Source of the DNA: a virus
Length of the DNA: 64,000 bases
Virus record (IMG/VR): IMGVR_UViG_3300024299_000001
Location: 67,275-131,274 of that record
Reading direction: 5' to 3' (one strand)
Shown: in pieces, positions 1 to 49,248 of the stretch
Numbering within the stretch: the first letter of the stretch is position 1
Layout: every line of letters starts with the position of its first letter
Notes under the pieces: model-generated
Databases searched by the model: none
What the model saw: only the letters and a program-made list of their open reading frames with translations
What the model was told of the DNA's origin: nothing
Made by a program: the position numbers and the translations under genes

Positions 1-2912
1 AATAAAGTTTTTTCAGATGGCTCAGACTCAGAAAATGCCGACGCGTCGTCAGCATTTTCTTCGGGTTTAGAGCCATCTTCTTTCTTTGGTTTCTTTTCAG
101 TTGCATGCTTTGTTCTAAGTACTGCTTCAATTTCTTGTCTTCTGTCAGTATTAGTTTTTTCAGTATTCTGATAAAGAGTTTGTAATTCCGCTTTGGTCAT
201 TTCTTCTAATGTTAAGAATGTTTCAGATTCATCCTGACCAAAAAAAGTATCTTCCTCTTCAACTACAAAATCTTCTTGTACTGGTGTAGTTGTTTCAATA
301 TCTTGGTCTGTTTTATAGGCTTTTAAACCTAATTCTTGTGCTGTTGCAGTAAGAACTTTACCTGTATTTGTTTTTATTTCAATACTATAACCAGTAACAG
401 TTTTTACCCCATTAACTATACTGAAGCTATCTGGAATCACATTACCAGTTACCTGAGCTTTAAAGGTACCAGTGTATTTAGGAAAATCAACAGTAACCCA
501 TTTTCCTTTATTTGTTTTAACTAAAGAAGTTATTTCTTGCTCAGCACTCAAAGGTTGTTCATTACTTCCGACTTCCTCTGAGGAAACATCTTCCGCTGTC
601 GCTGCAGAAATTTCCTCCTCCTCAGTCTCAGACTGAACAACCTTTTCGGCAGTAGGCTGAGCTTGGGGAGGGGTGATCATATCCTGTGCAACTGAAAGAG
701 CTTCAGACAGAGAATCAGCCTCACGCTCCATGGATTGAATTGAAGCTTCAAAGTTTGTATTAAAGTCATAATCGGCATTATAACCAATTGATGCACGTTC
801 AGTGTTCAGTTGTTCTAAGAATTTCTGATCAGCCGCAGAGAATGTTTTAATGACTGCTTCTTGTTCTTCAGTTGTTTTAGCTTTTGCTTTAATTACTGCA
901 TCCTGAAGTCTACGAAATAAATCAGCTTTAATGGCATGTCTTTCAGTGAATGCCTGAAGATCTGATAACTGAGATTTAGCTAATTTGGTGTCCTTATTTT
1001 GTGTTGCAATGGCTATGGATTGCAGGTAGCCCTTGATACCTTTAAATTTATCTTTGATTCTACCATTGATAATATCTTGGTTCACCTGCACAGATGTCTT
1101 GTTTATAGGGCTTTTTTGGCCCTCTAGAGTCGCTTTGGCACTTTTCTGATAGGAGAGTATGCGTTTGAACTTAACCTTCGTTATATCGTCTATTTTGGGG
1201 TTATTCAGGACCTCATTGATATCAGCATCTGTAAAATCACCTTTTGAACCAAAAACAGTAAGAATAGCTTCCTGGATCTTAACAGAATCAGAACCCTTAA
1301 GAATTGTCTTAACTTCTTTGAGTTTCTCAGGTGAAGCAGTCTCTTCTCGGCCCATACTATCGATGACCGGTACTATCTGATCTATGATGGCTTTAGAGGC
1401 CATGGCTTGTTTCATTGCAGAGACGGCTAACTCACCCTCTTCTTTAGTAAGTTCTCTTTCTTCTTTAATTGCCTGGTACTTCTGTACTTCTTTAATTTGT
1501 TCCTGGAATTCAGCATCTACTGCATTATGGATCTCTATTGCTTTATCATGATTGGTTATTTTAACCGATGGATCCAGATCTTTCTTTTGATTAATCTGTT
1601 GTAATGCTTCAGCTGCCAATACAGGATTATCTTTATGCATGGAAATGTCTTCTGTTTCAACAGCAGCTGATAATTTATCTTCATAACCTAATTGTGCTTT
1701 AGGATTCGCTTTAACCCTGAGAGCTTTACGTTCTGCTTTACGTTCAGTAGATTCTTGCTGTTCCTGTTCTGACCGAGTAAATACTCCGCCTACACTGGTA
1801 ACCGGTCCACCAAGTGAACCAAGCATACCAGCATCAAACTGTTCTTTACGAGATTCAGCAGAGAAAGGATTCTTACCAGTACCCCATTGTTCAATGGCTG
1901 TTTGCGCGTACTCTTCAGCAAATTCAACAGGAGCAACTTTACCTGCGGTTACACCAACTCTGGTAGCTTTGCCGGCCACACCACTTACTTTTTTACCTAA
2001 TCCACCAATGGTACTGAGGCCACCTTTTAAAGCTTTTACATTAAACAGTAAATCTAAGTATTCAACTGCTCCGGCCAGTCCAGTAGCAATTCCAGCTTTC
2101 TGGATTTGTTTCCAGGTTACATCTGCTTCCTGGGATAGAGTACCAAATATCTCACCACCCTCTAAACCAAAACCAGCAGAGGCCATACCAATATGGGTAC
2201 CAGCTTTACTGGTTACAGAAGATATTGCTAATTTAGATACTGAATCAGTTGCAGCAACTTTAGCAATGTTTTCAGTAGTTACTTTAGCACCTTGAGTAAT
2301 TAATTGCTGTTTAGCTATCCGATCAGCTTCTTTCTTAACTAAACCACCCATAAGCTTACTAATTGCTTTTTTACCAGTAAGCTCCACACCGGTTTTAATA
2401 ATACCACTACCAACCAACAAGCTAGTTAATTGCCCGGCCACATAACCCGAACCATGGGAGAACCAAGAAACTAATGCTTTCCAATCGCCTTCTTTAGCTT
2501 TTTCATAAGAGTAAGTAAAAGAATCTTCTGGTTGGGCGCCCACACCAATGTCTTGTTCAATTTTATGATACTTACCAGCAGCCGCTTCTTTAATCTTGGT
2601 AGCAATACCACCTTCCCCTACAATCTTTTCAGCCACAAGAGCACCGCCAGCTACTACACCTGAAGCTAACATAGGAATGCCCTTAACTGATTCTACAACA
2701 CCCCGAGCTGCTGCTTCAGGAAGAGTCTCTTTATAAGGGATTAAAGGCTGATTAGGTTCTTGAAAAGTGTTAACACTGCTTCGTAACTGTGCTTCCATAG
2801 TTGCAGTATCAAATTGCTTTTCTGCTGTTTTACTATTCAATATATCTATCTTAGCTTGAAGAGTATTTTGAAGATCAATACCTTTTTGCGGAGCAAGCTC
2901 TGGATCAAACAT
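1..2912 (-). CDS. Large virion protein, N-terminal ~970 codons only (3' end lies beyond window start); occupies the position of N4 gp50 virion RNA polymerase
   Basis: Open minus-strand frame from ATG at 2912 (AGGA upstream) toward the window edge. I hand-translated it and re-checked the segments at 1-120 and ~480-560; no stop seen. Absent from the ORF track because there is no stop in the window. It directly follows the gp51-55-like structural genes, as in N4. The sequence is acidic and coiled-coil rich; no polymerase motifs are visible in this part. Confidence 0.45.
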   Translation of the reverse strand, partial: MFDPELAPQKGIDLQNTLQAKIDILNSKTAEKQFDTATMEAQLRSSVNTFQEPNQPLIPYKETLPEAAARGVVESVKGIPMLASGVVAGGALVAEKIVGEGGIATKIKEAAAGKYHKIEQDIGVGAQPEDSFTYSYEKAKEGDWKALVSWFSHGSGYVAGQLTSLLVGSGIIKTGVELTGKKAISKLMGGLVKKEADRIAKQQLITQGAKVTTENIAKVAATDSVSKLAISSVTSKAGTHIGMASAGFGLEGGEIFGTLSQEADVTWKQIQKAGIATGLAGAVEYLDLLFNVKALKGGLSTIGGLGKKVSGVAGKATRVGVTAGKVAPVEFAEEYAQTAIEQWGTGKNPFSAESRKEQFDAGMLGSLGGPVTSVGGVFTRSEQEQQESTERKAERKALRVKANPKAQLGYEDKLSAAVETEDISMHKDNPVLAAEALQQINQKKDLDPSVKITNHDKAIEIHNAVDAEFQEQIKEVQKYQAIKEERELTKEEGELAVSAMKQAMASKAIIDQIVPVIDSMGREETASPEKLKEVKTILKGSDSVKIQEAILTVFGSKGDFTDADINEVLNNPKIDDITKVKFKRILSYQKSAKATLEGQKSPINKTSVQVNQDIINGRIKDKFKGIKGYLQSIAIATQNKDTKLAKSQLSDLQAFTERHAIKADLFRRLQDAVIKAKAKTTEEQEAVIKTFSAADQKFLEQLNTERASIGYNADYDFNTNFEASIQSMEREADSLSEALSVAQDMITPPQAQPTAEKVVQSETEEEEISAATAEDVSSEEVGSNEQPLSAEQEITSLVKTNKGKWVTVDFPKYTGTFKAQVTGNVIPDSFSIVNGVKTVTGYSIEIKTNTGKVLTATAQELGLKAYKTDQDIETTTPVQEDFVVEEEDTFFGQDESETFLTLEEMTKAELQTLYQNTEKTNTDRRQEIEAVLRTKHATEKKPKKEDGSKPEENADDASAFSESEPSEKTL

Positions 2913-21037: not shown

Positions 21038-21562
21038 CTATTTTATAATCATCCAATCATCAGCCAGCATATCAGTCTGTGAAGCTAACCAGCCTGGTAA
21101 CCATTTCTTATCAGCAGTCCACATTGCAATATACGGAAGCGTTACAAGGGGTGTGTCTTCACCAATCCATTTTGCGGTTCGATCATTAACCTTTCTATCT
21201 GTCCCTTGTGTTGAGAAAGGAGGTAAAGTCATTCCAGTCATAAGTACCAACCACATATCTTTACCATTCCAACCTGCCCGGGCAACCTTATGCCCAGTTT
21301 TAAGTGCTGCAATAGCTGTTCCAAAGGTCATAGAATCTTCAAGTGATTTATAAGCTGCCTCAAACACATCCATTGGGCTCCATGAGATATAATGACAACC
21401 GCTTTCCAAGGGTCCATCAAATTTACCCTTAGCATTTGAGTAACCAACCATATAGCCATCAGCTAATGGTTCATCCGGAACATCCATTCTCTGTGAATCA
21501 CAGTAATCTCCACGAGTCATAGGTGTTGCTTTAATAATTTTTGTACCAATAAACTTTTCCAT
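21038..21562 (-). CDS. DUF2829-domain protein (family that includes the Thoeris anti-defence protein Tad2)
   Basis: C-terminal half: FGTAIAALKTGHKVARAGWNGKDMWLV...WLASQTDMLADDWMII, which matches the DUF2829 signature as I recall it. Confidence 0.55.
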   Translation of the reverse strand: MEKFIGTKIIKATPMTRGDYCDSQRMDVPDEPLADGYMVGYSNAKGKFDGPLESGCHYISWSPMDVFEAAYKSLEDSMTFGTAIAALKTGHKVARAGWNGKDMWLVLMTGMTLPPFSTQGTDRKVNDRTAKWIGEDTPLVTLPYIAMWTADKKWLPGWLASQTDMLADDWMIIK

Positions 21563-22513: not shown

Positions 22514-22942
22514 TTATTTTTCATTGGTTAATTCTCCTTTATTCTCCCACTGTTCAAGCACATCATCAAAAGTAGAGAAATCTGATAGAACTGCCCGGGG
22601 GTTAATCAAGTAATGCTGCTGTTTAATCCGTCTAACTAATCCCAAACCCTCAAGGGCTTTGTAGGCCACACTTAACCGATTAATAGCAACTTTACCCTCT
22701 GGCCGGTAAACAGCAATATTAGTGTAAGGGTCTCTTGAATCAACCAACTCCCACCATAGCCAGGCTACCTGCTTAGACATAGCCTGAATGGTCTTATACA
22801 AATGTGGGTAATTCTTAACTCTGGTTTGGTAACGCATATTCCCTCCAATACAATCATAAGATGGTGTTACTACTTTATGCTTAACCTTCCGGCTAATATA
22901 AACCTCTTCATCATCTCCGATAACCTCTACAAACTGTGTCAT
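22514..22942 (-). CDS. Winged-helix DNA-binding protein, RepL-like; paralog of 48203..48649
   Basis: The segment SKQVAWLWWELVDSRDPYTNIAV...RLSVAYKALEGLGLVRRIKQQHYLINP aligns with SKPAYSLFNQLKSNRNPTNNISF...SYIINP in the other ORF. Confidence 0.4.
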   Translation of the reverse strand: MTQFVEVIGDDEEVYISRKVKHKVVTPSYDCIGGNMRYQTRVKNYPHLYKTIQAMSKQVAWLWWELVDSRDPYTNIAVYRPEGKVAINRLSVAYKALEGLGLVRRIKQQHYLINPRAVLSDFSTFDDVLEQWENKGELTNEK

Positions 22943-22972
22943 AGTTTATCCCCTTATTTTATGGATAAACAC

Positions 22973-23000
22973 AGCATACCATATAAAACATGTAAGTCAA
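22973..23000 (-). promoter_or_regulatory. Sigma70-like promoter for the leftward operon
   Basis: On the minus strand: TTGACT, then 16 nt ending in TGG, then TATGCT (extended -10), about 30 nt upstream of the ATG at 22942. Confidence 0.35.
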
Positions 23001-23095
23001 GGACTATTTTCCCATAAAAAGTGTGGTAAGAAATTGTTCATAACTATTTGAAATTATTAGTGATTCGCAGATTGGTGACGTCTATATATATATTA

Positions 23096-23160
23096 TTTGC
23101 GCGTACATGCGCGCGCGTATATAAGAGCATGCTGCGCATACCCATGTTTCGCTACGCTCA
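23096..23160. other. GC-rich island C with a ~26-nt perfect purine-pyrimidine alternation (TGCGCGTACATGCGCGCGCGTATATA) and a CGCTACGCT box
   Basis: Read directly; lies in the divergent terminus-like region. Confidence 0.45.
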
Positions 23161-23232
23161 ACTAAGAGCAACTAAAACTGAACCAAAGAGAAAGAACACA
23201 AGATCGGTAGATCTGTAACCGATTATTAAGGG

Positions 23233-23247
23233 TGCGCCAGAGGCGCG
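23233..23247. other. 5-6 bp stem / 3-nt AGA-loop hairpin (GCGCC AGA GGCGC)
   Basis: Inverted repeat read directly. Confidence 0.3.
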
Positions 23248-23384
23248 TAAAAAGAAAAAGGACCGAGTTTACCAAGCCCGATCCTTTTTCAACAACCACT
23301 AACCAAAAGGAGTTTAACATGTCCCATGAGAAGACATTAACTAAAACCTATACTAATTAAATTTAACTTGCAAGTAATAAAACT

Positions 23385-23420
23385 AAAAAAGAGTAAACTA
23401 GTTAAAGTTCACTCTTTTTC
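23385..23420. terminator. Terminator-like hairpin flanked by an A-run and a T-run (bidirectional type)
   Basis: AAAAAAGAGTAAAC..GTTCACTCTTTTT; 8 of 9 bp pair. Confidence 0.3.
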
Positions 23421-23516
23421 AGGGAGGTTAAAAAAAGGCCCGTGAGAAACCTTAATATTACTATTATATTATATAATTACCTTAAGCAAGTAATTTTAAC
23501 TTTTTGCAACTTTTCT

Positions 23517-23700
23517 CAAAAAATAAAATTTGAGTACACCGGTAGTTCTGTTTCAGGTTTTTCAGAAAAAAATAAATTAGACGTAGATGAAGTTCGGTTC
23601 CAGGTTTTTGTCAAAAAAATAAATTACGTACAGATGAAGAGTTTGCGAGTTTTTTAAAAAAATAAAAATTACGTACACCGGTAGTTCTGCTCTGTAAAGA
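23517..23700. repeat. Four imperfect ~43-49-bp direct repeats, each with an A6-7TAAA(A)TT head, in A-B-B-A order
   Basis: Units 1 and 4 share GTACACCGGTAGTTCTG. Units 2 and 3 share GTA(G/C)A..GATGAAG. Confidence 0.6.
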
Positions 23701-23771
23701 GCCTACAACACAAACCCACCCCCGGGTGCTTAAAACTTTAGGGCTACGTTTTCATCACCCACCATCTGCCT

Positions 23772-23797
23772 GGCCTCTGGCTATATCAATGGCACTA
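23772..23797 (+). promoter_or_regulatory. Candidate vRNAP-type hairpin promoter (variant loop TCT)
   Basis: GGCCTCTGGCTATATCAATGGCAC; member of the 7-copy motif family. Confidence 0.4.
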
Positions 23798-23827
23798 ACG
23801 CCACAATCCCTAGCTAGGAGATTTATC

Positions 23828-24085
23828 ATGTTTCAAAATTTAACCCGGGTAATGACCCGTACATCCGATGTCATTGTGGACACAATGGGTGTCCTATCTA
23901 TTAACATGTCCTCACTTAAAGTCATAAGCGAAGGCGGTAACGTCAAAGCTGAGGACTTCAAAGCAGCATGTATCGATGATGCTGCTCTTGCCGCTGACAA
24001 GCGTAAGTATGACATCACAAAACAACGTATTGACCTCGATGCCGATCATCAAGCGCTTCTGGCCACTCCTAAACCTAAGAAATAA
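23828..24085 (+). CDS. Hypothetical early protein
   Basis: Internal ATG of track ORF 23726..24085, preceded by AGGAG. The upstream part of the track ORF overlaps the promoter motif. Confidence 0.4.
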   Translation: MFQNLTRVMTRTSDVIVDTMGVLSINMSSLKVISEGGNVKAEDFKAACIDDAALAADKRKYDITKQRIDLDADHQALLATPKPKK

Positions 24086-24093
24086 CCCTAACC

Positions 24094-24131
24094 AGCCATA
24101 CCCAGTCCATCGGGTATGGCTTTACTCTTTT
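24094..24131 (+). terminator. Rho-independent terminator
   Basis: 10-bp stem AGCCATACCC/GGGTATGGCT with an 8-nt loop, then TTACTCTTTT. Confidence 0.55.
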
Positions 24132-24330
24132 ACTACACAAAGAACACATTAAGATAGTTGCTTTAAGATTGCTGTTTAGCTCCGTGCGTAAGAGGTCGTA
24201 ATTACCTGTAATAACACTGTTATTTAAATGTTTACACTGTTTAGCTTGATTTAACATAGTTCATCACTCCGACCATCGGTCACTATACCTACCCGACATA
24301 CTAACACCTTCAGTCTGTATCAACACCTCT

Positions 24331-24356
24331 ACCTCCGGTTATATAAACGGATAGTT
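24331..24356 (+). promoter_or_regulatory. Candidate vRNAP-type hairpin promoter
   Basis: ACCTCCGGTTATATAAACGGATAG. Confidence 0.45.
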
Positions 24357-24755
24357 GTTATAAAGGCAAGTTCATCCATGTGACATATCTCCGTAACGAG
24401 ATATATGCACGTTGAACTAGCAAAGCATAACAACTGTTCCTTTGCTAGAAAGACATTACCGCCGAACGGCAATGAGCGGTAGTATCATGCATCGAAACTA
24501 TAAATAAAGCCGACAAGCTTAGTGCACTTGGAACTCCCAACGCACTAATTCACACCTTGGACCGTGTGTCTTAAATTACTAACCAGTTGGTTAGTCCATT
24601 ATTTGATTGACCAGAATGGGGAGGTGTTTGAAAAGAATATGCATAGCTCGTTGCTTAATAACTGCAAGCATATCACCTAAATCTACATTGGTCTAATCAT
24701 CTTAAAGCTATAACCTCTGGGCAAGGTTAAAAGAATACTGCCCATTAACTTGCCC
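24346..24755 (+). ncRNA. Candidate structured early non-coding RNA or long leader
   Basis: About 410 nt between two promoter motifs, with no ORF longer than 15 codons on the + strand and at least six 6-9-bp helices read by eye. Confidence 0.35.
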
Positions 24756-24787
24756 AACCTCCGGTTATATCAATGGAAGTATTAATA
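24756..24787 (+). promoter_or_regulatory. Candidate vRNAP-type hairpin promoter
   Basis: AACCTCCGGTTATATCAATGGAAGTATTAAT. Confidence 0.5.
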
Positions 24788-24826
24788 CTTCTTTAAACTA
24801 ATTACTACTAATAGGAGCTACCAACC

Positions 24827-25000
24827 ATGCGTAATACTCAAACTGAAGAACTAACCAACTTACTCAATAATATTAATATTACTAACTTTCAAAAACAAAT
24901 TAAAGCCTTTGATATTACTAAAAATCAATTCTTCTTTATTGATAAAGATACAGTTATTCATGCTTATTGTATTAAAGGTATTTGGTACTGCAAAGCTTAA
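24827..25000 (+). CDS. Hypothetical early protein (57 aa, below track cutoff)
   Basis: ATG preceded by TAGGAG; hand translation MRNTQTEELTNLLNN...GIWYCKA. Confidence 0.4.
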   Translation: MRNTQTEELTNLLNNINITNFQKQIKAFDITKNQFFFIDKDTVIHAYCIKGIWYCKA

Positions 25001-25073
25001 TAATTATACCTTTCTAATTAAATTATAAGTGTGGGCCTAACCGGGCTCACACATTAACCAAAGGAGATAGACC

Positions 25074-25280
25074 ATGCGTAACCAAATCGGAGCACGTTAC
25101 CTACATCACTGCATCAATCGTACTGATAAGTCATTCAATGGCATCATTAACATTGCCAACCGACAATATGTTAGACTATCAGCAACTACCCTTAAACGCA
25201 CTAAAACAGGAGACTTAAATAATGGAAAATCATTCAAGCAGTTCAGAAAATACAAAGAAAATAACCAGGTTTTGGGATGA
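25074..25280 (+). CDS. Hypothetical early protein
   Basis: 68 aa with a strong SD (AAAGGAG). Confidence 0.35.
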   Translation: MRNQIGARYLHHCINRTDKSFNGIINIANRQYVRLSATTLKRTKTGDLNNGKSFKQFRKYKENNQVLG

Positions 25281-25758
25281 CCTTAAATCCGGGCATTTTG
25301 CGTCTATGATCAAGGAATCCAGTAAGGGCAATGCTTTATCAAATGCCCAGGAGGTCTGTAATATCATGAAGCCTTTCTTTGCCAGGCATGACGACATCGA
25401 AAAAATGTACTGTATCTTACTGGATGCCAAAAATCACATCATTGCTATCGAAAAGATGTTTTCTGGCTCAATCACAAGTTCCGCAGTATACCCCAGAGAA
25501 ATTGTAAAAAAGGTGTTGAAAAATAAAGCTGCAGCAATAATTTTGACACATAACCACCCGTCGGGCTCCACAAAGCCATCATCTGAAGATCTTATGATTA
25601 CAGCACGAATTGGAATTGCACTTTCAAGCATTGATGTAACCTTGCATGACCATCTGATTATTGGAGAAAATTATTACAGTTTTTCTGAACAGGGATGGTT
25701 AGAGAAAACAAACCAAAAATATCAGGATTTCATCTTTGCCAGCATCATAGCAGATTAA
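25222..25758 (+). CDS. radC: RadC-like JAB/MPN-domain protein
   Basis: HNHPSGSTKPSSEDLMIT (JAMM H-x-H-P-S-G motif) plus the typical RadC C-terminal fold length. Confidence 0.75.
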   Translation: MENHSSSSENTKKITRFWDDLKSGHFASMIKESSKGNALSNAQEVCNIMKPFFARHDDIEKMYCILLDAKNHIIAIEKMFSGSITSSAVYPREIVKKVLKNKAAAIILTHNHPSGSTKPSSEDLMITARIGIALSSIDVTLHDHLIIGENYYSFSEQGWLEKTNQKYQDFIFASIIAD

Positions 25759-25782
25759 ACCCAGTTCAATAAAAATTAATAG

Positions 25783-25820
25783 AAACCTTTTGGAGTTGTT
25801 CCAAAGGGTTTTTTGTTTTT
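25783..25820 (+). terminator. Rho-independent terminator
   Basis: AAACCTTTTGG/CCAAAGGGTTT stem followed by TTTTTGTTTTT. Confidence 0.65.
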
Positions 25821-25845
25821 GAATTAATAACCAAGGAGAAGACCA

Positions 25846-26121
25846 ATGGCCAAAAAGCCTCATAACATTAAATTACAAGGCATCCTTCCTGACGGTCATA
25901 TTGCTAAAACATCTGATGCTGACCAAGTATCAGCCTTCGTATCAATTGACCGCAAAGTATCTGTGGTAATACGCCCAGACAGAGCATTCCTTAGAACTCC
26001 CAAGGGTCACTATCAGCTTACCAAACATAAGAGTGCCAACCGGTACCAAGGCATTGTAGAGGGAAATAAAACCCACATAACCACCAAATTAATAGTTGGT
26101 AAAGTAATATGGTGGGCATAA
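25846..26121 (+). CDS. Hypothetical early protein
   Basis: 91 aa; SD AAGGAG. Confidence 0.35.
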   Translation: MAKKPHNIKLQGILPDGHIAKTSDADQVSAFVSIDRKVSVVIRPDRAFLRTPKGHYQLTKHKSANRYQGIVEGNKTHITTKLIVGKVIWWA

Positions 26122-26144
26122 CTACAACAGCTGGAGGTCGAACA

Positions 26145-26176
26145 GGCCTCCGGCTATATCTTTGGGTATTAATATT
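26145..26176 (+). promoter_or_regulatory. Candidate vRNAP-type hairpin promoter
   Basis: GGCCTCCGGCTATATCTTTGGGTATTAATAT. Confidence 0.5.
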
Positions 26177-26193
26177 AAATAAAGGAGATAGTT

Positions 26194-26385
26194 ATGAAAC
26201 TCTATGAACCCGTTGAACTCGGTGAAACCATTAAAGCCGGTTATCAATTTAAACGCCGAGGAGAGAATACCTGGGTTAGCTTAGATCAGTCTTCGATCGA
26301 TAGCTTTGTTGCAATAACCAAGAAACCTATTATCTATGATGCCCTTGATCGTCTTTGTCGTAAACCATTAAAGGAGTTTGAATAA
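26194..26385 (+). CDS. Hypothetical early protein
   Basis: 63 aa; SD AAAGGAG. Confidence 0.35.
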   Translation: MKLYEPVELGETIKAGYQFKRRGENTWVSLDQSSIDSFVAITKKPIIYDALDRLCRKPLKEFE

Positions 26386-26471
26386 TGTGCAACAGGTACT
26401 GCTCATCCAAAAGAAATTAAAATATCATTACAAACAACAATAGTTTAATTATAAATAAAGGAGTAATTATT

Positions 26472-26747
26472 ATGGTTCAGTCATTTTGGGACAGGCCTTC
26501 ACCGGTTCTTACTCAACAAGAGTTAAAAAACTGTGAAACAGTACTTGCACAAATAAAAATAGATGGTAAATCTTCTTTATGCCCCATTAATACAAAATGT
26601 GAAAGTATTTGCTGTAAACTCTTTCCAGAATTACCTGACTATACATGTCCTTGTGGGTCTCAGTATAAACCCTTGCATCTTATCCGCGTACTTAATAAGT
26701 TAATCAGAGAGAATACTTACCGATTAAATAAAACAAAAGGAGACTGA
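26472..26747 (+). CDS. Hypothetical Cys-rich early protein
   Basis: 91 aa; contains C-x-n-C clusters (CPINTKCESICC, CPCG). Confidence 0.35.
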   Translation: MVQSFWDRPSPVLTQQELKNCETVLAQIKIDGKSSLCPINTKCESICCKLFPELPDYTCPCGSQYKPLHLIRVLNKLIRENTYRLNKTKGD

Positions 26748-26752
26748 ACCAA

Positions 26753-26944
26753 ATGCCAAAGTATAAAATACATTGGACAGAAATCAGACAAGTCAGTTAT
26801 CATACTGAAATAATTGCTGATAATAAGATTAGTGCCCAAAAGATGCTCTTTCATGATACTGATGAAGTTAGATCATCTGTTGAGAAAGTAGATGAAGACT
26901 GCTTTGATTATATATCTAAAATTAAAATAGAGGAGATCAAATGA
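26753..26944 (+). CDS. Hypothetical early protein
   Basis: 63 aa; SD AAAGGAG. Confidence 0.35.
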   Translation: MPKYKIHWTEIRQVSYHTEIIADNKISAQKMLFHDTDEVRSSVEKVDEDCFDYISKIKIEEIK

Positions 26945-27273
26945 CTATTGAAATTATGAACCTTCGTACTGATCAACCGACTGAAGAGTATGATGTAAAA
27001 ATTGACCGTACATCTGTTCTTGGTAATCCTTACCATATGCTCAATGAAAAACAGAGAGATCTGGTATGTGCTCAGTATGAAGACTATCTGAAGAGTAGAG
27101 CAGCAGCGGGTCATCTCATGGAGAATAGATCATTTATCAAGGAATTGGAAAGGCTGGTTGAGCTGTATAAAGAACATAAGCAACTCAGATTGTTCTGCTG
27201 GTGTGCCCCGAAACGTTGCCACGGTGCCTCTATTAAGCGCTGGGTACTAAACGAATGCCATAGTACCAGTTAA
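26941..27273 (+). CDS. DUF4326-domain protein
   Basis: VKIDRTSVLGNPY...LRLFCWCAPKRCHG matches the DUF4326 pattern as I recall it. Confidence 0.55.
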   Translation: MTIEIMNLRTDQPTEEYDVKIDRTSVLGNPYHMLNEKQRDLVCAQYEDYLKSRAAAGHLMENRSFIKELERLVELYKEHKQLRLFCWCAPKRCHGASIKRWVLNECHSTS

Positions 27274-27325
27274 TCACTTAAGGGTCTTAAATGGCCCTTT
27301 ATACCTCTTTAAAAAGGAAATAGAT

Positions 27326-27766
27326 ATGGAATTACAAGATTTTAAAGGTTGGTACTTATTAACCGGTGTAGAATTCTCTACAATCAAACCTTCACGTAAT
27401 AGTTATTCTTCAGATATTGGGTGTTGCCGATTTGTATTAAATAATATCACTTATCAGATAACTGAAGATGAAAATGATGGTTATCGTAGTGCCCTAGAAG
27501 AGGTTAAAGTTATTGCTGATCATCAAGTAAAAAATACTTTTGAGCCAGCTTGGGTCAAAGCAGTGTATGTATCAGTAAAAACAAAGGGTGATTACCATTA
27601 TAACAGGGATTGTGATATTATCCAATTTATCGATGTAATAACTAATAAAATAGTATTAGAAATTGGTACTGAAAATACTGATGACTATTACCCAACGTAT
27701 ATTGATAGTTTTAACCCAGAGAATATGGCTATAAATGCAAACCTTAAACAGGAAATAGAGATATGA
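27326..27766 (+). CDS. Hypothetical early protein
   Basis: 146-aa ORF. Confidence 0.35.
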   Translation: MELQDFKGWYLLTGVEFSTIKPSRNSYSSDIGCCRFVLNNITYQITEDENDGYRSALEEVKVIADHQVKNTFEPAWVKAVYVSVKTKGDYHYNRDCDIIQFIDVITNKIVLEIGTENTDDYYPTYIDSFNPENMAINANLKQEIEI

Positions 27767-28215
27767 TGAAAGAATTAATCAAAGAAATCATAACTGATCC
27801 AATGAAATTAAAGATACCTTGTCGACCAATTGGTAAGCTGCAGAATAATGCTTTGCTTGATGAGATAGTTATGTATCTCACTGATACTTACAAAGCTAAC
27901 CAGAAGAGATGCTTAGGTCTTGCAGCTAATCAGATAGGCTACCAGAAGAGAGTTATACTGGTTAGGATAACCCAAGGGTTTGTTATTATGATTAACCCGG
28001 TTATTGTACCCAGTCTGATCCATGGTCGGATTACCAAGAAAGAGAACTGCTTAAGCTTCCCGGGACAGGTATTCAGAGTTAAACGATATAAACGTATCAA
28101 AGTTATCTATCATCCGTATACCAAGGAACCAGTATTACAGACTCATAAATATACTGGTCTTGCTGCTCGTATTGGTCAACATGAGGTTGATCATCTTAAT
28201 GGTGTACTCAGATGA
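27763..28215 (+). CDS. def: Peptide deformylase
   Basis: All three PDF motifs are present: GLAANQIG, ENCLSFPG (a variant of EGCLS) and HEVDHLNG. Confidence 0.85.
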   Translation: MMKELIKEIITDPMKLKIPCRPIGKLQNNALLDEIVMYLTDTYKANQKRCLGLAANQIGYQKRVILVRITQGFVIMINPVIVPSLIHGRITKKENCLSFPGQVFRVKRYKRIKVIYHPYTKEPVLQTHKYTGLAARIGQHEVDHLNGVLR

Positions 28216-28454
28216 CTTTTAAGTGGGAACCAACTGATTCGGGTGGTATGCGAAGAGTCCGAGTATACAATATTTATGAGGCTATTGATTACATCTGGAC
28301 AAACCAAGACAATGTAAAAGCTAAAAGTCATTTGCACAGAGATGCTAAAATGTGGAACATACTCTGTCATATTATTGAGAACAGCCCAGATACTGTATTT
28401 ACTGTGGAACAGCTTGATAAGTTTTTACTGGTTTGTGAAGGAGTATACATTTAA
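28212..28454 (+). CDS. Hypothetical early protein
   Basis: 80-aa ORF with an overlapping start. Confidence 0.35.
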   Translation: MTFKWEPTDSGGMRRVRVYNIYEAIDYIWTNQDNVKAKSHLHRDAKMWNILCHIIENSPDTVFTVEQLDKFLLVCEGVYI

Positions 28455-28461
28455 CCAAACA

Positions 28462-28490
28462 GGCCTCCGGCCATATGAACGGGAGTACAT
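28462..28490 (+). promoter_or_regulatory. Candidate vRNAP-type hairpin promoter
   Basis: GGCCTCCGGCCATATGAACGGGAGTACAT. Confidence 0.5.
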
Positions 28491-28528
28491 TACGTGCTCC
28501 TGTTTACATTAAACTAAAGGAGATTACC

Positions 28529-28702
28529 ATGGCTAAGAAATTTGCATTTAACATTATGTCTACCAGACGGTGTGCTCACCCGATGTGTATCAAGCTTATC
28601 AAACAAAGATTAGTTGATAAGGATCCTGCAGGGACAAAGTTCACTTTATGCTACAAACATTGGCACCAACAAGAATATAACAGGAGAGGCAACCATGTGT
28701 AA
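28529..28702 (+). CDS. Hypothetical small Cys/His-rich protein
   Basis: Internal ATG of track ORF 28475..28702 with AAAGGAG. The upstream part of the track ORF overlaps the promoter motif. Confidence 0.35.
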   Translation: MAKKFAFNIMSTRRCAHPMCIKLIKQRLVDKDPAGTKFTLCYKHWHQQEYNRRGNHV

Positions 28703-28895
28703 GATTATCGGATTTACCAAAAGAGTTGATGGTTATCGTACTGCTGCTGGTTTTATGAAAACTGAACTGTTTAAAACTGCCTGTATGAAAGTTGCTGGTA
28801 AAGGTAACTATGTTGACTATGCACAGCTGTACACCAAACGCCAAGCCAGTAAGTTCCTTAAGAGCAGAGGTATTGTATTTAACCACTTAAATTAA
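28695..28895 (+). CDS. Hypothetical small protein
   Basis: Internal ATG of track ORF 28614..28895, preceded by AGGAGAGG. Confidence 0.35.
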   Translation: MCKIIGFTKRVDGYRTAAGFMKTELFKTACMKVAGKGNYVDYAQLYTKRQASKFLKSRGIVFNHLN

Positions 28896-28904
28896 GAGGT
28901 TCTT

Positions 28905-29042
28905 ATGTTTGATAGATTCTTGGTACTTGTAGGTATTGTTGGTTTGGTTCTGGCTTGTAATGAATCAAACTATTGGGAAGTTAATGTATTGGGTGTTATG
29001 CTGTTAGCTACTTCAGTAGCACTCTTTAACTTTAAAAGCTAA
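28905..29042 (+). CDS. Small membrane protein (45 aa, below track cutoff)
   Basis: MFDRFLVLVGIVGLVLAC...VLGVMLLATSVALF; two hydrophobic helices. Confidence 0.35.
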   Translation: MFDRFLVLVGIVGLVLACNESNYWEVNVLGVMLLATSVALFNFKS

Positions 29043-29044
29043 AA

Positions 29045-29073
29045 GGCCTCCGGCCATAAAAAGGGGAGTATTC
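29045..29073 (+). promoter_or_regulatory. Candidate vRNAP-type hairpin promoter
   Basis: GGCCTCCGGCCATAAAAAGGGGAGTATTC. Confidence 0.5.
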
Positions 29074-29112
29074 GCTCTCAAATAATCAACCATTAATCAA
29101 GGAGTATGTACC

Positions 29113-29376
29113 ATGGAAAAGAAAAGTAAAAAGAAAGACAAACAACGTGCTGCAGCATTTGTTAATTGGGAAGTAACTACTAAAACTGGTATTGTTGTTA
29201 AATCTGATAGAGGTTTTCCTATCTTTCAGAACCCTGAATATCCTAATGCCAAAGAAGATCTGTTGGTTGCGGCAGCTGGTCAGACCGAGAATGGTATTCT
29301 TGAGTTGGATATGAAAGTCCGTATCTGCTTGAATGCCCCTGTTGAAGCTATTGTCAAACCCGAAGACTTGTTCTAA
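29113..29376 (+). CDS. Hypothetical basic early protein
   Basis: 87 aa; SD AAGGAG. Confidence 0.35.
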   Translation: MEKKSKKKDKQRAAAFVNWEVTTKTGIVVKSDRGFPIFQNPEYPNAKEDLLVAAAGQTENGILELDMKVRICLNAPVEAIVKPEDLF

Positions 29377-29571
29377 ATCAACTGGCTCACAGTCATCCCA
29401 GGTTACATAAAAAACGGGATTGAGACATCGAGCCGCATAATGGGTTATCCTTAATTGGGTAGCCCATTAAAAATTAATACTCTAATATTTTCAGACATAT
29501 ATTATATACATATGGAATTTGAGATCATTGGTATTAGGGTATTAATTTTAAAAATTTAAAAGGAGACAAGC

Positions 29572-30396
29572 ATGTTAAACCAAAGTGAACAATTTGTACT
29601 TGATTATATTATTGCTGAAGGTGGGCTCAAAGAGATCCCTGAAGCTATTGAACTGATTAGACAATACTGGCGTAAAGACCACTATAAATCTAAAAATATA
29701 AGACTTAAACAATGGGCTCCTCATAATGCTGACTCATTAGAGATAATTATATCAGTATTTACTGTTACTTTAATGGAAGAGACTATTACTTATCAGGCTA
29801 TGGTTGGTAAGTTAAACCATTTGATTAAAGTAAAAGATAGTCTTGATAGATTTAAAATAATAGCTGATGTAATTGCTCTGATCAGTCAGACTGGTTTGAT
29901 AGACATTGTTAGTCCCGGGCAGGGTACCAGTATACTCATTAGTACTGATTATGAGATACTTGATATCCCTAAACCAGATAAGCATGTTATTCTTACCCAT
30001 CGACCACAGCCTATTGAATCTAACTGGGATCCAGAGCTGGGCTCAATGCTGTTGGGGCATAACATGAACCATCATGATGAGGAGATCTGTTTACAGCACT
30101 TGAACCAATTAAATCAAATACCTTTGCAACTGAATAGGGCTTTTGTAAATATGTATACCGAGGCGCCTAGGAATGCCCCTAATAGTGTAAAAGCTGAACA
30201 ACAATGGTATCAATTTATGAATGAATCCTTTGGTAAGTATCAAGAGATTCTGAACCACAATAATTATTTCTATTTGGGTCATAAATATGATACCCGTGGT
30301 AGAACTTATGCTTGTGGTTACCATGTTACTACTCAGGGTAATTCTTATAAGAAAGCCATTATTGAATTGGCTAATGAGGAATTAGTGGAGGGCTAA
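29572..30396 (+). CDS. T7-like single-subunit RNAP family, N-terminal subunit (N4 RNAP II gp15-like)
   Basis: 274 aa. HKYDTRGRTYACGYHVTTQGNSYKKAIIEL aligns with T7 RNAP NMDWRGRVYAV..NPQGNDMTKGLLTL. The size matches the N4 RNAPII small subunit. Confidence 0.8.
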   Translation: MLNQSEQFVLDYIIAEGGLKEIPEAIELIRQYWRKDHYKSKNIRLKQWAPHNADSLEIIISVFTVTLMEETITYQAMVGKLNHLIKVKDSLDRFKIIADVIALISQTGLIDIVSPGQGTSILISTDYEILDIPKPDKHVILTHRPQPIESNWDPELGSMLLGHNMNHHDEEICLQHLNQLNQIPLQLNRAFVNMYTEAPRNAPNSVKAEQQWYQFMNESFGKYQEILNHNNYFYLGHKYDTRGRTYACGYHVTTQGNSYKKAIIELANEELVEG

Positions 30397-30400
30397 TATT

Positions 30401-30589
30401 ATGGAACTACCCTACGAAATCATTGAAAAATTATTAGAGATAGAAATTAAAAAGAGGTTTACACTACATAAACTAAATGTAAATAAGTATGAAAGAAATC
30501 CGCTACATCGAATGCAAATGCTTAATAGTAAAAAGCGTTGGAAAGATGCTGAACACGCTCTTACTTGGTTTATGCGAAATACATATTAA
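30401..30589 (+). CDS. Hypothetical small protein between the RNAP II subunit genes
   Basis: 62-aa ORF with an SD. Confidence 0.3.
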   Translation: MELPYEIIEKLLEIEIKKRFTLHKLNVNKYERNPLHRMQMLNSKKRWKDAEHALTWFMRNTY

Positions 30590-30612
30590 TTAAATTAGTG
30601 AAAGGATAAATT

Positions 30613-30894
30613 ATGGTTTCATTTCCAAGTATGGATCAAATGATTAAAGATGCCGATAAACTTAAAAAGAAAACCTTTAACGAGCGGCAATTTGAAGAGG
30701 CTCGTAGACAATTGATGGAGTTATGCACTAATGCCTTTGAAGAAGGTAAACGTCAACAAATAGGAATAGACAAAAAAGGCTTAGGTTATGGTAGAGTAGG
30801 TTTTGTGTATACCCCGACTTATAAAATTATCATGTCTCTTAAAACTGTTAATGAACAAATAACTGAATTACTATTGAAAGGAAAAGGCTTATGA
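30613..30894 (+). CDS. Hypothetical protein between the RNAP II subunit genes
   Basis: 93-aa ORF with an SD. Confidence 0.3.
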   Translation: MVSFPSMDQMIKDADKLKKKTFNERQFEEARRQLMELCTNAFEEGKRQQIGIDKKGLGYGRVGFVYTPTYKIIMSLKTVNEQITELLLKGKGL

Positions 30895-31130
30895 GATATT
30901 TTGTTTATTTATTTAATAAATTAGTATTTAAAGTCTTTGCACCCAAACCCCGGCCTCCGCTTGATTATGTATTATTAATACAATTATTTAATAGACTGGA
31001 TATTGATTTTACAGTCAATGAACCAGAAAATAATACTGTAATTATTACTATTTATGGAAAAGACAAACATGTTGAAGCAGGCATTAATTTCTGTTTTAAA
31101 CGATCTGGCAAATTAATTGGTACATACTAG
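30891..31130 (+). CDS. Hypothetical protein between the RNAP II subunit genes
   Basis: 79-aa ORF with an overlapping start. Confidence 0.3.
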   Translation: MRYFVYLFNKLVFKVFAPKPRPPLDYVLLIQLFNRLDIDFTVNEPENNTVIITIYGKDKHVEAGINFCFKRSGKLIGTY

Positions 31131-31146
31131 AAAAGGAATTTAAACT

Positions 31147-32361
31147 ATGAGATTGTATACCGGTAAAGAGTACTTACAGATTGATATGGCTAATCATTTT
31201 GGTTTAGATAAATCTCAGTTTGGTGGTCGATTGAAGTGGGTACAAGATAATGAAACTCAACTTGAAACATTAGTAGAACATGCCAAGGAACCCTTTAGAT
31301 TTGCTGCTGCACTAATGGCTTACCGCAAGACTCAGGCTGGGCAACCTACTGGTTATTTGGTTGGTTTTGATGCCTGTGCTTCCGGTCCACAGATCATGAG
31401 TACTTGGATGGGTTGTAAAGTAGGTGCCCGTAATACTGGTCTCACTGGTCAAACCAGAATGGATATTTATAAAGAAACTGTTAAAGCAATGGATAAAATT
31501 CTTGGTAAAAACAGTAACTATAATCGTGATGCAGTGAAAATTAGTTTAATGACTCATTATTATGGTTCAAAGGCTGAACCTAAGAATGCCTTTGGCGAGG
31601 ATACCCCAGAGCTTGAAGCCTTTTATGAGGCACAGAAGATAGTTGCACCCGGGGCAAGTGAATTGATGCATCACATGTTAAATGCCTGGCAACCCTTTGC
31701 ACTACAGCATACATGGATCATGCCAGATGGTTTCTTTGTTAACAAGAAAGTAAAAGATATGGTTGATGATAAAATTGAGGTAGATGAGCTTGAAGGCCAT
31801 CCTTGCTTCATCTATCGGCATACTGAGAATGTAGGCTTAGAAGAAGGTATTTCATTAGCTGCTGATTGTGTCCACAGTGGTGATGGCTTTGTAGTAAGAG
31901 AGATGAATTACCGATGTAACTATGATCGTACAGCATTGAAAAGAGCTGAACGTATGCTACATTACCGGTTATTCCAAGGCATACCTGCTGTAGGTGCTAC
32001 CAGTAAGATAGAACGATTAGCTGATCAGCATCAGTTTATATCTTTGGCTGGTGCACATGACTTGACCCAAGAAAGAGTGAATAGTTATAGTTATGAATAT
32101 GCTTACAATTTATTGAAATTAGTTAAGCAGACATTAGCTAAACCCGCATTTCCAATAGTATTCGTTCATGATGATTTTAAATGCCATGCTAATAATATGA
32201 ATATAGTTAGACAGACTTATAATGACATATTTGTAGAGATGGCTAATAGCAATATAATTAATGCTATTCTTACAATGATTACTGGTAAACCAACAAATAT
32301 TACTAAATTATCTGATGACTTGTCTGTTGAAATTAGAAGTTCTGAATACTTCCTATCTTAG
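31147..32361 (+). CDS. T7-like single-subunit RNAP family, catalytic subunit (N4 RNAP II gp16-like)
   Basis: 404 aa. Motif A is GFDACASGPQIMS (T7 DGSCSGIQH), motif B is LMTHYYGSKAEP, motif C is FVHDDF. Confidence 0.85.
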   Translation: MRLYTGKEYLQIDMANHFGLDKSQFGGRLKWVQDNETQLETLVEHAKEPFRFAAALMAYRKTQAGQPTGYLVGFDACASGPQIMSTWMGCKVGARNTGLTGQTRMDIYKETVKAMDKILGKNSNYNRDAVKISLMTHYYGSKAEPKNAFGEDTPELEAFYEAQKIVAPGASELMHHMLNAWQPFALQHTWIMPDGFFVNKKVKDMVDDKIEVDELEGHPCFIYRHTENVGLEEGISLAADCVHSGDGFVVREMNYRCNYDRTALKRAERMLHYRLFQGIPAVGATSKIERLADQHQFISLAGAHDLTQERVNSYSYEYAYNLLKLVKQTLAKPAFPIVFVHDDFKCHANNMNIVRQTYNDIFVEMANSNIINAILTMITGKPTNITKLSDDLSVEIRSSEYFLS

Positions 32362-32375
32362 TTAATTGAAGTATA

Positions 32376-32428
32376 TCCTATAGGGCTCACCTCCGGTGAG
32401 TTCTGTAGGATTATTTCTTATTTTTTTT
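32376..32428 (+). terminator. Rho-independent terminator (core CTCACC-TCC-GGTGAG)
   Basis: Extended hairpin followed by TTATTTCTTATTTTTTTT. Confidence 0.7.
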
Positions 32429-32587
32429 GAGAGTGAAGAAATACTTCTTTCCGATATACTAATAGTTCTGAATTTAGCATTTTTGACTATATACAGACTA
32501 TAACGTAACTGCTATATTTTAGTTAAAACTATATTTTAAGTAAAATCCATAAAATAACACTTTTAGACTTTAATAGGAGATCCAAAC

Positions 32588-32758
32588 ATGTCAAAAAAAT
32601 CACTAATAGGTTTAATTCCAAGACATATCCACAATGAAAAAAGAATCTGGGAAATTATATTAGCAATAAATCGTTATGCTGCTGTAAGAAAAGTAATTCC
32701 AAATGAATGGATGGAAGAGTTAAAAGAATTATACCCAAAAGAAGCACAGGAGGATTAA
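32588..32758 (+). CDS. Hypothetical small protein (56 aa, below track cutoff)
   Basis: TAGGAG SD; MSKKSLIGLIPRHIHNEKRIWE... Confidence 0.35.
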   Translation: MSKKSLIGLIPRHIHNEKRIWEIILAINRYAAVRKVIPNEWMEELKELYPKEAQED

Positions 32759-32760
32759 TC

Positions 32761-32916
32761 ATGCCAGGTAGACAAGCCAGTTGTCCAGAATGTGGTGCCA
32801 GTATTGATGTATTTAATAATAAAGATGGAGATATTTTTCCTTGTTCTGATTGTGGAGAAAGTTTGGAATTAATAAAGAACACCGGAGAAGAACCAGAATT
32901 AATCTATAATTATTAA
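32761..32916 (+). CDS. LysW-like zinc-ribbon protein with acidic tail
   Basis: Internal ATG of track ORF 32707..32916 after AGGAGG; CPECGA...CSDCGESLELI...EEPE. Confidence 0.45.
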   Translation: MPGRQASCPECGASIDVFNNKDGDIFPCSDCGESLELIKNTGEEPELIYNY

Positions 32917-32931
32917 CAGGAGTAATGAGCC

Positions 32932-33116
32932 ATGGGTATGAAGATAAACAGTAAAGAGGCGGTTAAATTTATAATTGCTGCCATGAAAGCAAATCTTGTT
33001 ACCATGATATCTGGTTCCCCAGGTATTGGTAAAAGCGCTATTGTACAACAAATTGCTGATCAATATAATCTTGAACTAATTGATGTAAGATTAAGTCAGT
33101 GTGATCCAACAGACCT
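32932..33116 (+). CDS. AAA+ (MoxR/AAA_5-type) ATPase, exon 1 (N4 gp24-like)
   Basis: Walker A GSPGIGKS. The frame is broken after ..RLSQCDPTDL and resumes at 34000. Confidence 0.75.
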
Positions 33117-33999
33117 TAAGTTACAAAGGGCTTCATAAGAGCAATCTTATGTCGAAAACTATCTAAACGGTGAAACACCTTGACTAATGGAAACCCTTAA
33201 CATACAGTGGGGTAACTATTAATTTTAAAGCGAGGTCAATACCGTGCTAAATACTAATAACATTACAGAAATTTGGGTACCGATTAAAAATTTTGAAAAA
33301 AGATATGAGGTATCTAATTTAGGAAGAATACGCTCTATTCAAGATAATCATCATAATTATCGTATTAAAATAATAACAGGTTTCATAAGATCAAAAACTT
33401 GTCAATATTTATATGTACAATTATGGCGAAAAGATAAACCAACAACAAAAGCAGTTCATCGATTAGTAGCACAAGCATTTAAACCAAATCCTTATAATAA
33501 ACCAATGGTTAATCATAAAGATGGTATTAAAATAAATAATATTGAAACAAATATTGAGTGGGCTACTAATTCAGAAAATGTTAAACATGCTTTTACAACT
33601 GGGCTACAGGATAGAGAAAAATGTGTAAAGCGAATGATTGGAACTAAATTTAACACCAGATCCAAATACAAAAATGTATCTTGGGATAACTCCAGAAAAA
33701 AATGGATTGGTGGTGTTAAACACAAAGGAAAAGTTATTAAAAATAAACGTTTTAATAGCGAAATAGAGGCAGCTTTACATGTTAACTGGATTATAGATAC
33801 TTATAATTTAGACCGTCCAAAAAATGTTATTAGTTAAATTGCGTAACGACCATCCCGCAAGGGAGTACACTCAAGTGAGTGGAAACGGTAGTCGTCCTGC
33901 TTATAATAGTAGGATGTTGATATGGTCTATTCTGCATGGTAACATGCAGCAGTTCAGAAGAGAACGGGTAAAGATTAACGAACTTTATCGAATATTAAG
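33117..33999 (+). mobile_element. Group I intron carrying an HNH homing endonuclease gene
   Basis: Joining 33116 (U) to 34000 (which follows intron-terminal G 33999) restores DPTDL-L-GFPF and a 344-aa ATPase. The 3' core (AGTACACTCAAGTGAGTGGAAACGGT, TAACGAAC) is homologous to the intron at 52916. Boundaries +/- a few nt. Confidence 0.6.
33244..33837 (+). CDS. HNH homing endonuclease (NUMOD4 + I-HmuI-like HNH_3)
   Basis: EIWVPIKNFEKRYEVSNLGRIRS, AVHRLVAQAF.PNP..KPMVNHKDGIKINN..NIEWATNSEN; GTG start after GAGGT. Confidence 0.8.
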   Translation: MLNTNNITEIWVPIKNFEKRYEVSNLGRIRSIQDNHHNYRIKIITGFIRSKTCQYLYVQLWRKDKPTTKAVHRLVAQAFKPNPYNKPMVNHKDGIKINNIETNIEWATNSENVKHAFTTGLQDREKCVKRMIGTKFNTRSKYKNVSWDNSRKKWIGGVKHKGKVIKNKRFNSEIEAALHVNWIIDTYNLDRPKNVIS

Positions 34000-49219: not shown

Positions 49220-49248
49220 CCAACCTCCGGTTGGTTTAAAAGGATTAC
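49220..49248 (+). promoter_or_regulatory. Hairpin-promoter-like element (CCAACC-TCC-GGTTGG) outside the early region
   Basis: 6-bp stem with the same TCC loop and a downstream AAAAGGATTACT similar to the element at 29045. Confidence 0.35.

Follow-up and report, generated by a model that had tools for sequence, protein, structure and literature searches.

Six short hairpin elements in the early region of an uncultured N4-like phage as candidate virion RNA polymerase promoters

The window considered here is the whole 64-kb stretch of DNA (64,000 nucleotides, nt) taken from IMG/VR record IMGVR_UViG_3300024299_000001. It is a circularly permuted N4-like (Schitoviridae) genome, and the phage is uncultured and known from metagenome contigs. 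Its early region carries six copies of a short inverted-repeat element, which we name e1 to e6 for the copies starting at 23772, 24331, 24756, 26145, 28462 and 29045, and which are probably early promoters for the virion RNA polymerase (vRNAP) that such a phage injects with its DNA. The first-pass annotation had put these elements forward as candidate vRNAP promoters, and the proposal is supported by sequence and comparison, namely by the core shared with the N4 promoters P2 and P3, by a structural-pattern control, and by the elements of related phages. Most likely this is a family to be expected in such phages, rather than a new kind of element. The coordinates, rechecked in the window, are as follows.

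23772..23800, + strand: e1, GGCC-TCT-GGCT with 3 perfect pairs, spacer ATATCAAT, GG at 23791-23792, then ATG 23828; loop centre at 23777 with the GG 14 nt downstream; first element past the genome junction
24331..24358, + strand: e2, ACC-TCC-GGT, spacer TATATAAAC, GG at 24349-24350, no + strand open reading frame (ORF) of at least 40 amino acids (aa) for ~405 nt
24756..24784, + strand: e3, AACC-TCC-GGTT, spacer ATATCAAT, GG at 24775-24776, then ATG 24827
26145..26173, + strand: e4, GGCC-TCC-GGCT with 3 perfect pairs, spacer ATATCTTT, GG at 26164-26165, then ATG 26194
28462..28490, + strand: e5, GGCC-TCC-GGCC, spacer ATATGAAC, GG at 28481-28482 followed by GAGTAC, then ATG 28529
29045..29073, + strand: e6, GGCC-TCC-GGCC, spacer ATAAAAAG, GG at 29064-29065 followed by GAGTATTCGCTC, then ATG 29113

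The elements share a three-part layout, in which a stem of 3-4 base pairs (bp) with a 3-nt loop is followed by an 8-nt A/T-rich spacer of the form ATATNAAY and then by a GG that is invariant in all six and lies 14-15 nt downstream of the loop centre, with a semi-conserved (G/A)AGTA behind it. The inverted repeat of 3-4 bp around a 3-nt loop that had been described is present throughout, with only three perfect pairs in e1, e2 and e4. On the non-template strand the loop reads TCC in e2-e6 and TCT in e1, and the template-strand core is 5'-CC-GGA-GG-3', with C-GGA-G in five of the six and C-AGA-G in e1. The template loop 5'-GGA-3' with its central G, as first annotated, thus holds for five elements, and in e1 it is replaced by AGA with the central G kept. 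What had been singled out as a downstream box corresponds to the A/T-rich spacer, the putative start site (GG) and the first bases that would be transcribed.

All six elements are on the + strand, intergenic, and placed between the genome junction (~22950-23770) and the genes of the phage RNA polymerase RNAPII, in the orientation of the early genes; e4, e5 and e6 begin 3-24 nt past a stop codon. Behind five of them come a Shine-Dalgarno sequence and, 30-52 nt past the invariant GG, an ATG, and for these the earlier statement that the elements stand just upstream of small + strand ORFs is accurate. It fails for e2, which is followed by ~405 nt without a sizeable + strand ORF, reaching to e3.

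When a weight matrix of 32 nt, derived from the six sites, was run along the two strands of the whole window, it recovered every annotated copy at 32-42 bits, the runner-up (49120) scoring only 15.8 bits, and the leave-one-out scores of the six were 14.6-26.8 bits. With at most one mismatch, the core pattern CCTCYGGYYATA gave 7 matches against 1.26 expected, a number reached by none of 100 dinucleotide shuffles. Among the direct repeats of 22900-33000, a repeat finder independently ranked this family first (D1/D2), and neither it nor the matrix scan turned up another repeated family resembling promoters in the early region. Where the first-pass annotation had allowed for six or seven copies, we count six: the would-be seventh, at 63518, differs at one position, falls within a - strand ORF and does not reach 8 bits. 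The 49120 site is in coding sequence and has no complementary arms, and it was rejected together with 63518, 32027, 24714 and 17700 (- strand), each of which is coding, has non-complementary arms or lacks a GG at offset 14. Across the elements, no conserved sequence was found upstream of the hairpin. Megablast of the region against cultured phages gave no match, and when IMG/VR was scanned for exact matches to GGCCTCCGGCYATAT, a near-identical contig alone had multiple copies, the single matches at 41 other loci being taken as chance; near-identical contigs keep the elements.

The likeness to the early promoters of N4 extends from anatomy to placement. In both phages an inverted repeat with a 3-nt loop is followed by an A/T-rich spacer and GG, and in both the elements precede the RNAPII genes in the early region at the left end, facing the same way as the early genes, in a genome that encodes a giant vRNAP. 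In the N4 genome, P1 reads GTTGC-TTC-GCAAC-ttat-GG, P2 reads AAGAAGC-TCC-GCTTCTT-tt-GG and P3 reads AAGCTGC-TCC-GCAGCTT-tt-GG, and P2 and P3 have the same TCC loop (template 5'-GGA-3') and C:G closing pair as the window elements. Loop and C:G closure are required in N4 for extrusion and for contacts at -9 to -12 (reviewed in PMC4496689). The two sets differ in number (three early promoters in N4 versus six copies here) and in the distance from loop centre to GG (11 nt versus 14-15 nt), and the window elements are further set apart by a semi-conserved initially transcribed GG(G/A)AGTA and by the TCT loop of e1.

As a structural control we used a pattern of at least three perfect pairs, C:G closure, a T-N-C or T-N-N-C loop and a GG at fixed offset from the loop. 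At an offset of 11 it selected exactly P1, P2 and P3 in the 45 kb of N4, with no other match on either strand. At an offset of 14 it selected five of the six window elements on the + strand and nothing on the - strand (0.66 in shuffles, strands combined), e1 being missed only because its loop, TCT, ends in T. In the first 12 kb of LUZ7 it matched at 85, 796 and 3700 at an offset of 13, and at 3668 at an offset of 12.

The corresponding short-stem LUZ7 hairpins (81, 792, 3663 and 3695) are located where early promoters have been described, and those at 3663 and 3695 stand in tandem before the Drc gene, matching the published description (PMC9163698). ONT-cappable-seq of LUZ7 gave nine early start sites, and in most of its early promoters a conserved 3-nt loop tops a stem of 4 bp or more, with transcription beginning at a G that lies 13-14 nt beyond the hairpin centre (PMC9163698); for LUZ7, LIT1 and PEV2, three potential hairpin promoters had been predicted, with a 4-5 nt hairpin and a 3-nt loop (PMC3715699). 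The copy number, short stems and long downstream box that the first-pass annotation considered unusual relative to N4 fall within this LUZ7 range. Short stems (4-5 bp in LUZ7), a 3-nt T-N-C loop closed by C:G, many copies and, past the RNAPII genes, a further class of TCC hairpins with longer stems are common to LUZ7 and the window. LUZ7 differs in having TTC or TAC loops rather than TCC, a ruler of 13 rather than 14 nt, and a spacer that is not ATAT-rich, and its start sites have been mapped experimentally, whereas those of the window elements are predicted from sequence.

The layout recurs in relatives, by which we mean contigs whose RNAPII small subunits are 38-67% identical to that of the window. 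In the early regions of L044, L046 and L061 (small subunits 38-65% identical), the control pattern matched three, five and three times, respectively, on the early-gene strand and never on the opposite one, where 0.01-0.12 matches per strand were expected, and L053, L054 and L055 have one element each with the same 14-nt ruler. Loops follow lineage, being TCC or TCT in the window, TTCC in L044, TAC in L061, and TAC, TCC or TTC in L046. Across relatives the distance to the GG stays at 14 for stems of 3-6 bp, and at each of the two GG positions the G is kept in 17 of 18 elements (window plus relatives).

When these 18 elements were aligned (MAFFT gapped the 4-nt loops at their 5' end, and the five elements with 4-nt loops were each manually shortened by one loop base), 95.8% of cells were paired, all four pairs showed changes on both sides, and none of 500 shuffles reached the covariation score. 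A stronger indication than this score is that stems differ within single genomes and yet remain complementary: GCC/GGC and ACC/GGT occur in the window, AGC/GCT in L044, and GCCC/GGGC and GGTC/GACC in L061. Because the stems vary within one genome but stay complementary, base pairing is favoured over a reading of the sequence as two half-sites.

The polymerase genes of the window are the following.

1..2912, - strand: vRNAP, 5' part of the gene (~970 codons), running off the left window end
29572..30396, + strand: RNAPII small subunit, N4 gp15 homologue (E 3e-23), downstream of all six elements
31147..32361, + strand: RNAPII large subunit, N4 gp16 homologue, Pfam RNA_pol match

Both N4 hallmarks named in the first-pass annotation, a two-subunit RNAPII and a giant ORF at the gp50 position, are borne out by these genes. 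Genes on the - strand fill 1-22000, and the late genes and the vRNAP gene lie on that strand before the junction. The full vRNAP ORF, read on a 74.5-kb contig with the same genes, has 3603 aa and matches PHROG phrog_2206 ('virion RNA polymerase', E 5.5e-253), its polymerase domain, placed near residues 1190-2350 by alignment with the N4 mini-vRNAP, being 20-25% identical to known vRNAPs and ~24% to that of LUZ7. Neither the whole protein nor its central domain found a match among PDB sequences with phmmer, even at E 10, and a Pfam search with the vRNAP gave no match, so we aligned it directly by MAFFT with N4 gp50 and the vRNAPs of LUZ7 and phi50-12, verifying the N4 numbering residue by residue. 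The residues matching the N4 catalytic D559, Y678 and D951 are kept. The position of N4 W129, which stacks on the loop base, is occupied by an aromatic F, in an alignment that is reliable at the catalytic motifs and weak at this N-terminal loop-recognition element. With its counterparts in cultured N4-like phages the RNAPII large subunit shares no more than 43% identity.

The product of the vRNAP gene is the enzyme that we propose reads the elements; hairpin extrusion, the acting polymerase and the exact start site are all inferred by analogy. Once the left genome end has entered the cell, negative supercoiling would extrude the short inverted repeat, and a template-strand mini-hairpin 5'-(G)GCC-GGA-GGC(C)-3', with a C:G-closed G-N-A triloop, would form. 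The vRNAP would bind loop and stem, while the 8-nt A/T-rich spacer (ATATNAAY) would remain single-stranded and serve as a ruler, so that GTP could initiate transcription at the invariant GG, which lies 14-15 nt from the loop centre, and GG(G/A)AGTA would be the initially transcribed sequence. Six such promoters would divide the ~6-kb early region into short units, the last of which comprise the RNAPII genes. There is some likeness to T7-type promoters, in that a conserved element of ~20-28 nt has a G-rich start (GGGAGA in T7; GGGAGTA in e5 and e6) and the proposed reading polymerase belongs to the same single-subunit superfamily. T7 promoters, however, are hairpin-free and are read as a duplex spanning -17 to +6, whereas the window elements have a covarying stem and hold constant just their loop, closing pair and start.

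Several observations weigh against vRNAP promoters. The stems, at 3-4 bp, are shorter than the 5-7 bp of N4, and the three with only three perfect pairs (e1, e2 and e4) also fall below the minimum of 4 bp given for LUZ7. The TCT loop of e1, as AGA on the template, has lost the 5' G needed for extrusion in N4. Nearest-neighbour DNA folding gives the short hairpins -1.3 to -3.3 kcal/mol, with z scores of -0.4 to +0.4 against shuffles, and the minimum-energy fold of e2 is a different pairing; the energies do not separate the hairpins from shuffles, and thermodynamics therefore gives no support. In DNA, unusual stability is a property of C:G-closed G-N-A triloops, a bonus that the folding parameters may or may not include. 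The covariation set is partly circular, the relatives' elements having been picked by a hairpin search. No protein-coding gene stands behind e2, and the e6 copy appears dispensable, as in L001, a ~95-99% identical IMG/VR contig, its 18-nt hairpin is cleanly deleted between short TAAAA repeats (L001 9385 versus window 29041-29058) with the GG box retained. The base matching the essential -8G of N4 is a C here, with a compensating G at -14, the template reading CC-GGA-GG where N4 has GC-GGA-GC. In N4 this base is contacted by the specificity-loop residue R904, and neither R904 nor D901 is conserved in this vRNAP or in those of LUZ7 and phi50-12; one L044 element does read GC-GGAA-GC. Judged from these sequences, the -8G contact looks N4-specific rather than family-wide.

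Hairpin architecture alone cannot tell the two phage polymerases apart, because the middle promoters of LUZ7 are likewise GC-rich hairpins, their 3-4 nt loop sitting on 6 bp of stem or more and a G start following after ~15 bp (PMC9163698), a spacing close to the 14-15 nt seen here. The elements might on these grounds be middle-type promoters for the heterodimeric RNAPII. We regard this as unlikely: all six precede both RNAPII genes, with no other early family that could express RNAPII first; their stems of 3-4 bp do not attain the LUZ7 middle-promoter length; the sole long-stem TCC hairpins in the window (32386 and 49220) lie downstream of the RNAPII genes; and the short-stem LUZ7 counterparts occupy the places described for early promoters. 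Hairpins on the transcribed strand between genes, three of them close behind stop codons, could also function as RNA, folding as GGCC-UCC-GGCC within a long early transcript and serving in its processing, stability or attenuation. A further point for this is e4, whose 3' arm can alternatively pair with 26129-26137 to give a larger hairpin with a T-rich stretch after it, and which is the only element flagged by a terminator scan, through that different, larger pairing. The earlier remark that the elements lack U-tracts accordingly holds for five of the six and not for e4. As to the short hairpins themselves, a G+C-rich stem of at least five pairs followed by a T/U tract, as in an intrinsic terminator, was not found in them: they have 3-4 pairs followed by ATAT, which is a very short stem for RNA. 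What is conserved, moreover, is a fixed distance from loop to GG, together with a loop and closing pair common to the N4 DNA promoters; an RNA element would have no need of an invariant GG held 14 nt off, and the same pattern at an 11-nt offset selects exactly the mapped promoters of N4. An RNA-level role is thus very unlikely.

Palindromes are typical of operators, and the TATAT or CATAT past the hairpin is loosely like a -10 hexamer, which would suit promoters for the host RNA polymerase or sites for a dimeric regulator on a GGCC-N3-GGCC palindrome. Yet none of the 37 matches to sigma-70-type -35/-10 pairs (16-18 nt spacing) in 22900-33000 overlaps an element, and 37 is no enrichment over the 40.3 found in shuffles. 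Nothing is conserved upstream of the hairpin, and stems that vary within a genome while keeping their complementarity fit pairing rather than half-site reading by one protein. To us this is the most improbable of the explanations, and vRNAP promoters remain the preferred one.

If the elements are vRNAP promoters, they provide a concrete, testable promoter set for a deep-branching uncultured N4-like lineage, and one that would be of use when early transcription units are annotated in Schitoviridae from metagenomes. The comparison points to the loop and closing pair as what stays constant in vRNAP promoters, with stem length, the -8 base and the loop-to-start distance drifting by lineage, and the elements would offer naturally varied material for work on the reading of DNA hairpins by single-subunit polymerases. 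None of this alters how N4-type transcription is understood, and a specialist would not be surprised.

A second class of hairpins in the window has the same CC-TCC-GG top as the six elements on stems of 6 bp (5-7 bp in relatives), with two + strand members at 32375-32411 and 49220-49234 and DNA fold z scores of -2.6 and -2.9. The former begins 25 nt past the stop of the RNAPII large-subunit gene and caps an imperfect hairpin of 17 pairs with a T-rich tail, and the latter lies 17 nt before ATG 49251. Counterparts occur in L044 (12681), L056 (3163), L046 (12512), L061 (10999), L060 (14582) and LUZ7 (L062; 8238 and 9521). Six other phages that we examined have a TCC-loop hairpin downstream of their RNAPII large-subunit gene, at most 60 nt from the stop in three of them. 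Most are followed by a YTTGT box, with a G at +12. N4 has a classic terminator at that spot. To judge from these features they could be early-region terminators or middle promoters of the LUZ7 type.

It is tempting to speculate that in N4-like phages there is a hairpin code of two tiers, with a ruler specific to each lineage, in which short hairpins mark early vRNAP starts and long-stem hairpins the switch from early to middle transcription, although we regard this as a doubtful possibility. The C:G-closed T-N-C mini-hairpin would in that case have a ruler of 11 nt in N4, 13 nt in LUZ7 and 14 nt in the uncultured clade, while the long-stem CC-TCC-GG class, from just past the RNAPII genes, would serve as terminators or as RNAPII promoters. 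Were both classes promoters, hairpin recognition by both phage polymerases would be ancestral, and the hairpin-free middle promoters of N4 would be the exception. On the same speculative reading, e2 would drive a structured early non-coding RNA of ~400 nt.

The stretch between e2 and e3 (24351-24755, + strand) has an RNA minimum free energy of -109.8 kcal/mol (z -4.35), equalled by none of 100 shuffles. No Rfam match and no + strand ORF of at least 40 aa was found in it, and the fold makes it a candidate structured early non-coding RNA that e2 would drive. In the window as a whole, neither Rfam families nor transfer RNAs were found.

Between the elements, the near-identical contig L001 differs from window 24819-29549 by whole-ORF replacements and indels, and ORFs 26194-26385 and 27326-27766 are absent, which suggests that cassettes of early ORFans turn over around the putative promoters. 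The early region also encodes, on the + strand, a RadC-like JAB protein (25222-25758), a DUF4326 protein (26941-27273) and a peptide deformylase (27763-28215). The DUF4326 gene is a further likeness to N4, whose gp12 is a DUF4326 protein.

Just upstream of e1, 23503-23689 holds four copies of a unit of ~46-47 nt (GGTTTTT-N-AAAAAAATAAATTACGTAC...). About 150 nt of non-coding DNA before the first promoter (23630-23830) is kept in L044 and L061 with 69% mean column identity, including the conserved blocks GCAGGTTTTT, CTGTAAAGA and CCACCCCCGGG, in two phages whose RNAPII small subunits are only 38-65% identical to that of the window. Perhaps this repeated and conserved stretch marks the genome terminus or the DNA that is injected first. 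Within the junction region, the - strand carries at 23234-23246 a 5-bp GC hairpin, GCGCC-TCT-GGCGC, which points to the - strand ORF 22514-22942 but is not accompanied by a GG at offset 14. Close by, at 23095-23130, GCGC and TATA alternate (gcgcgtacatgcgcgcgcgtatata).

Two further hairpins on the + strand, at 33868 and 53723, resemble each other (agtaCAC(T/C)C-AAGT-G(A/G)GTGgaa(a/g)cggt). One falls where ORF 33824-34849 begins, directly behind an ORF for a NUMOD4/HNH homing endonuclease (33244-33837), and the other in the gap that separates ORF 53068-53673 from ORF 53832-54458; duplicated gene ends or homing sites could account for the pair. The - strand block has a Tad2-like gene of the anti-Thoeris family (21038-21562, - strand) at its promoter-proximal end.

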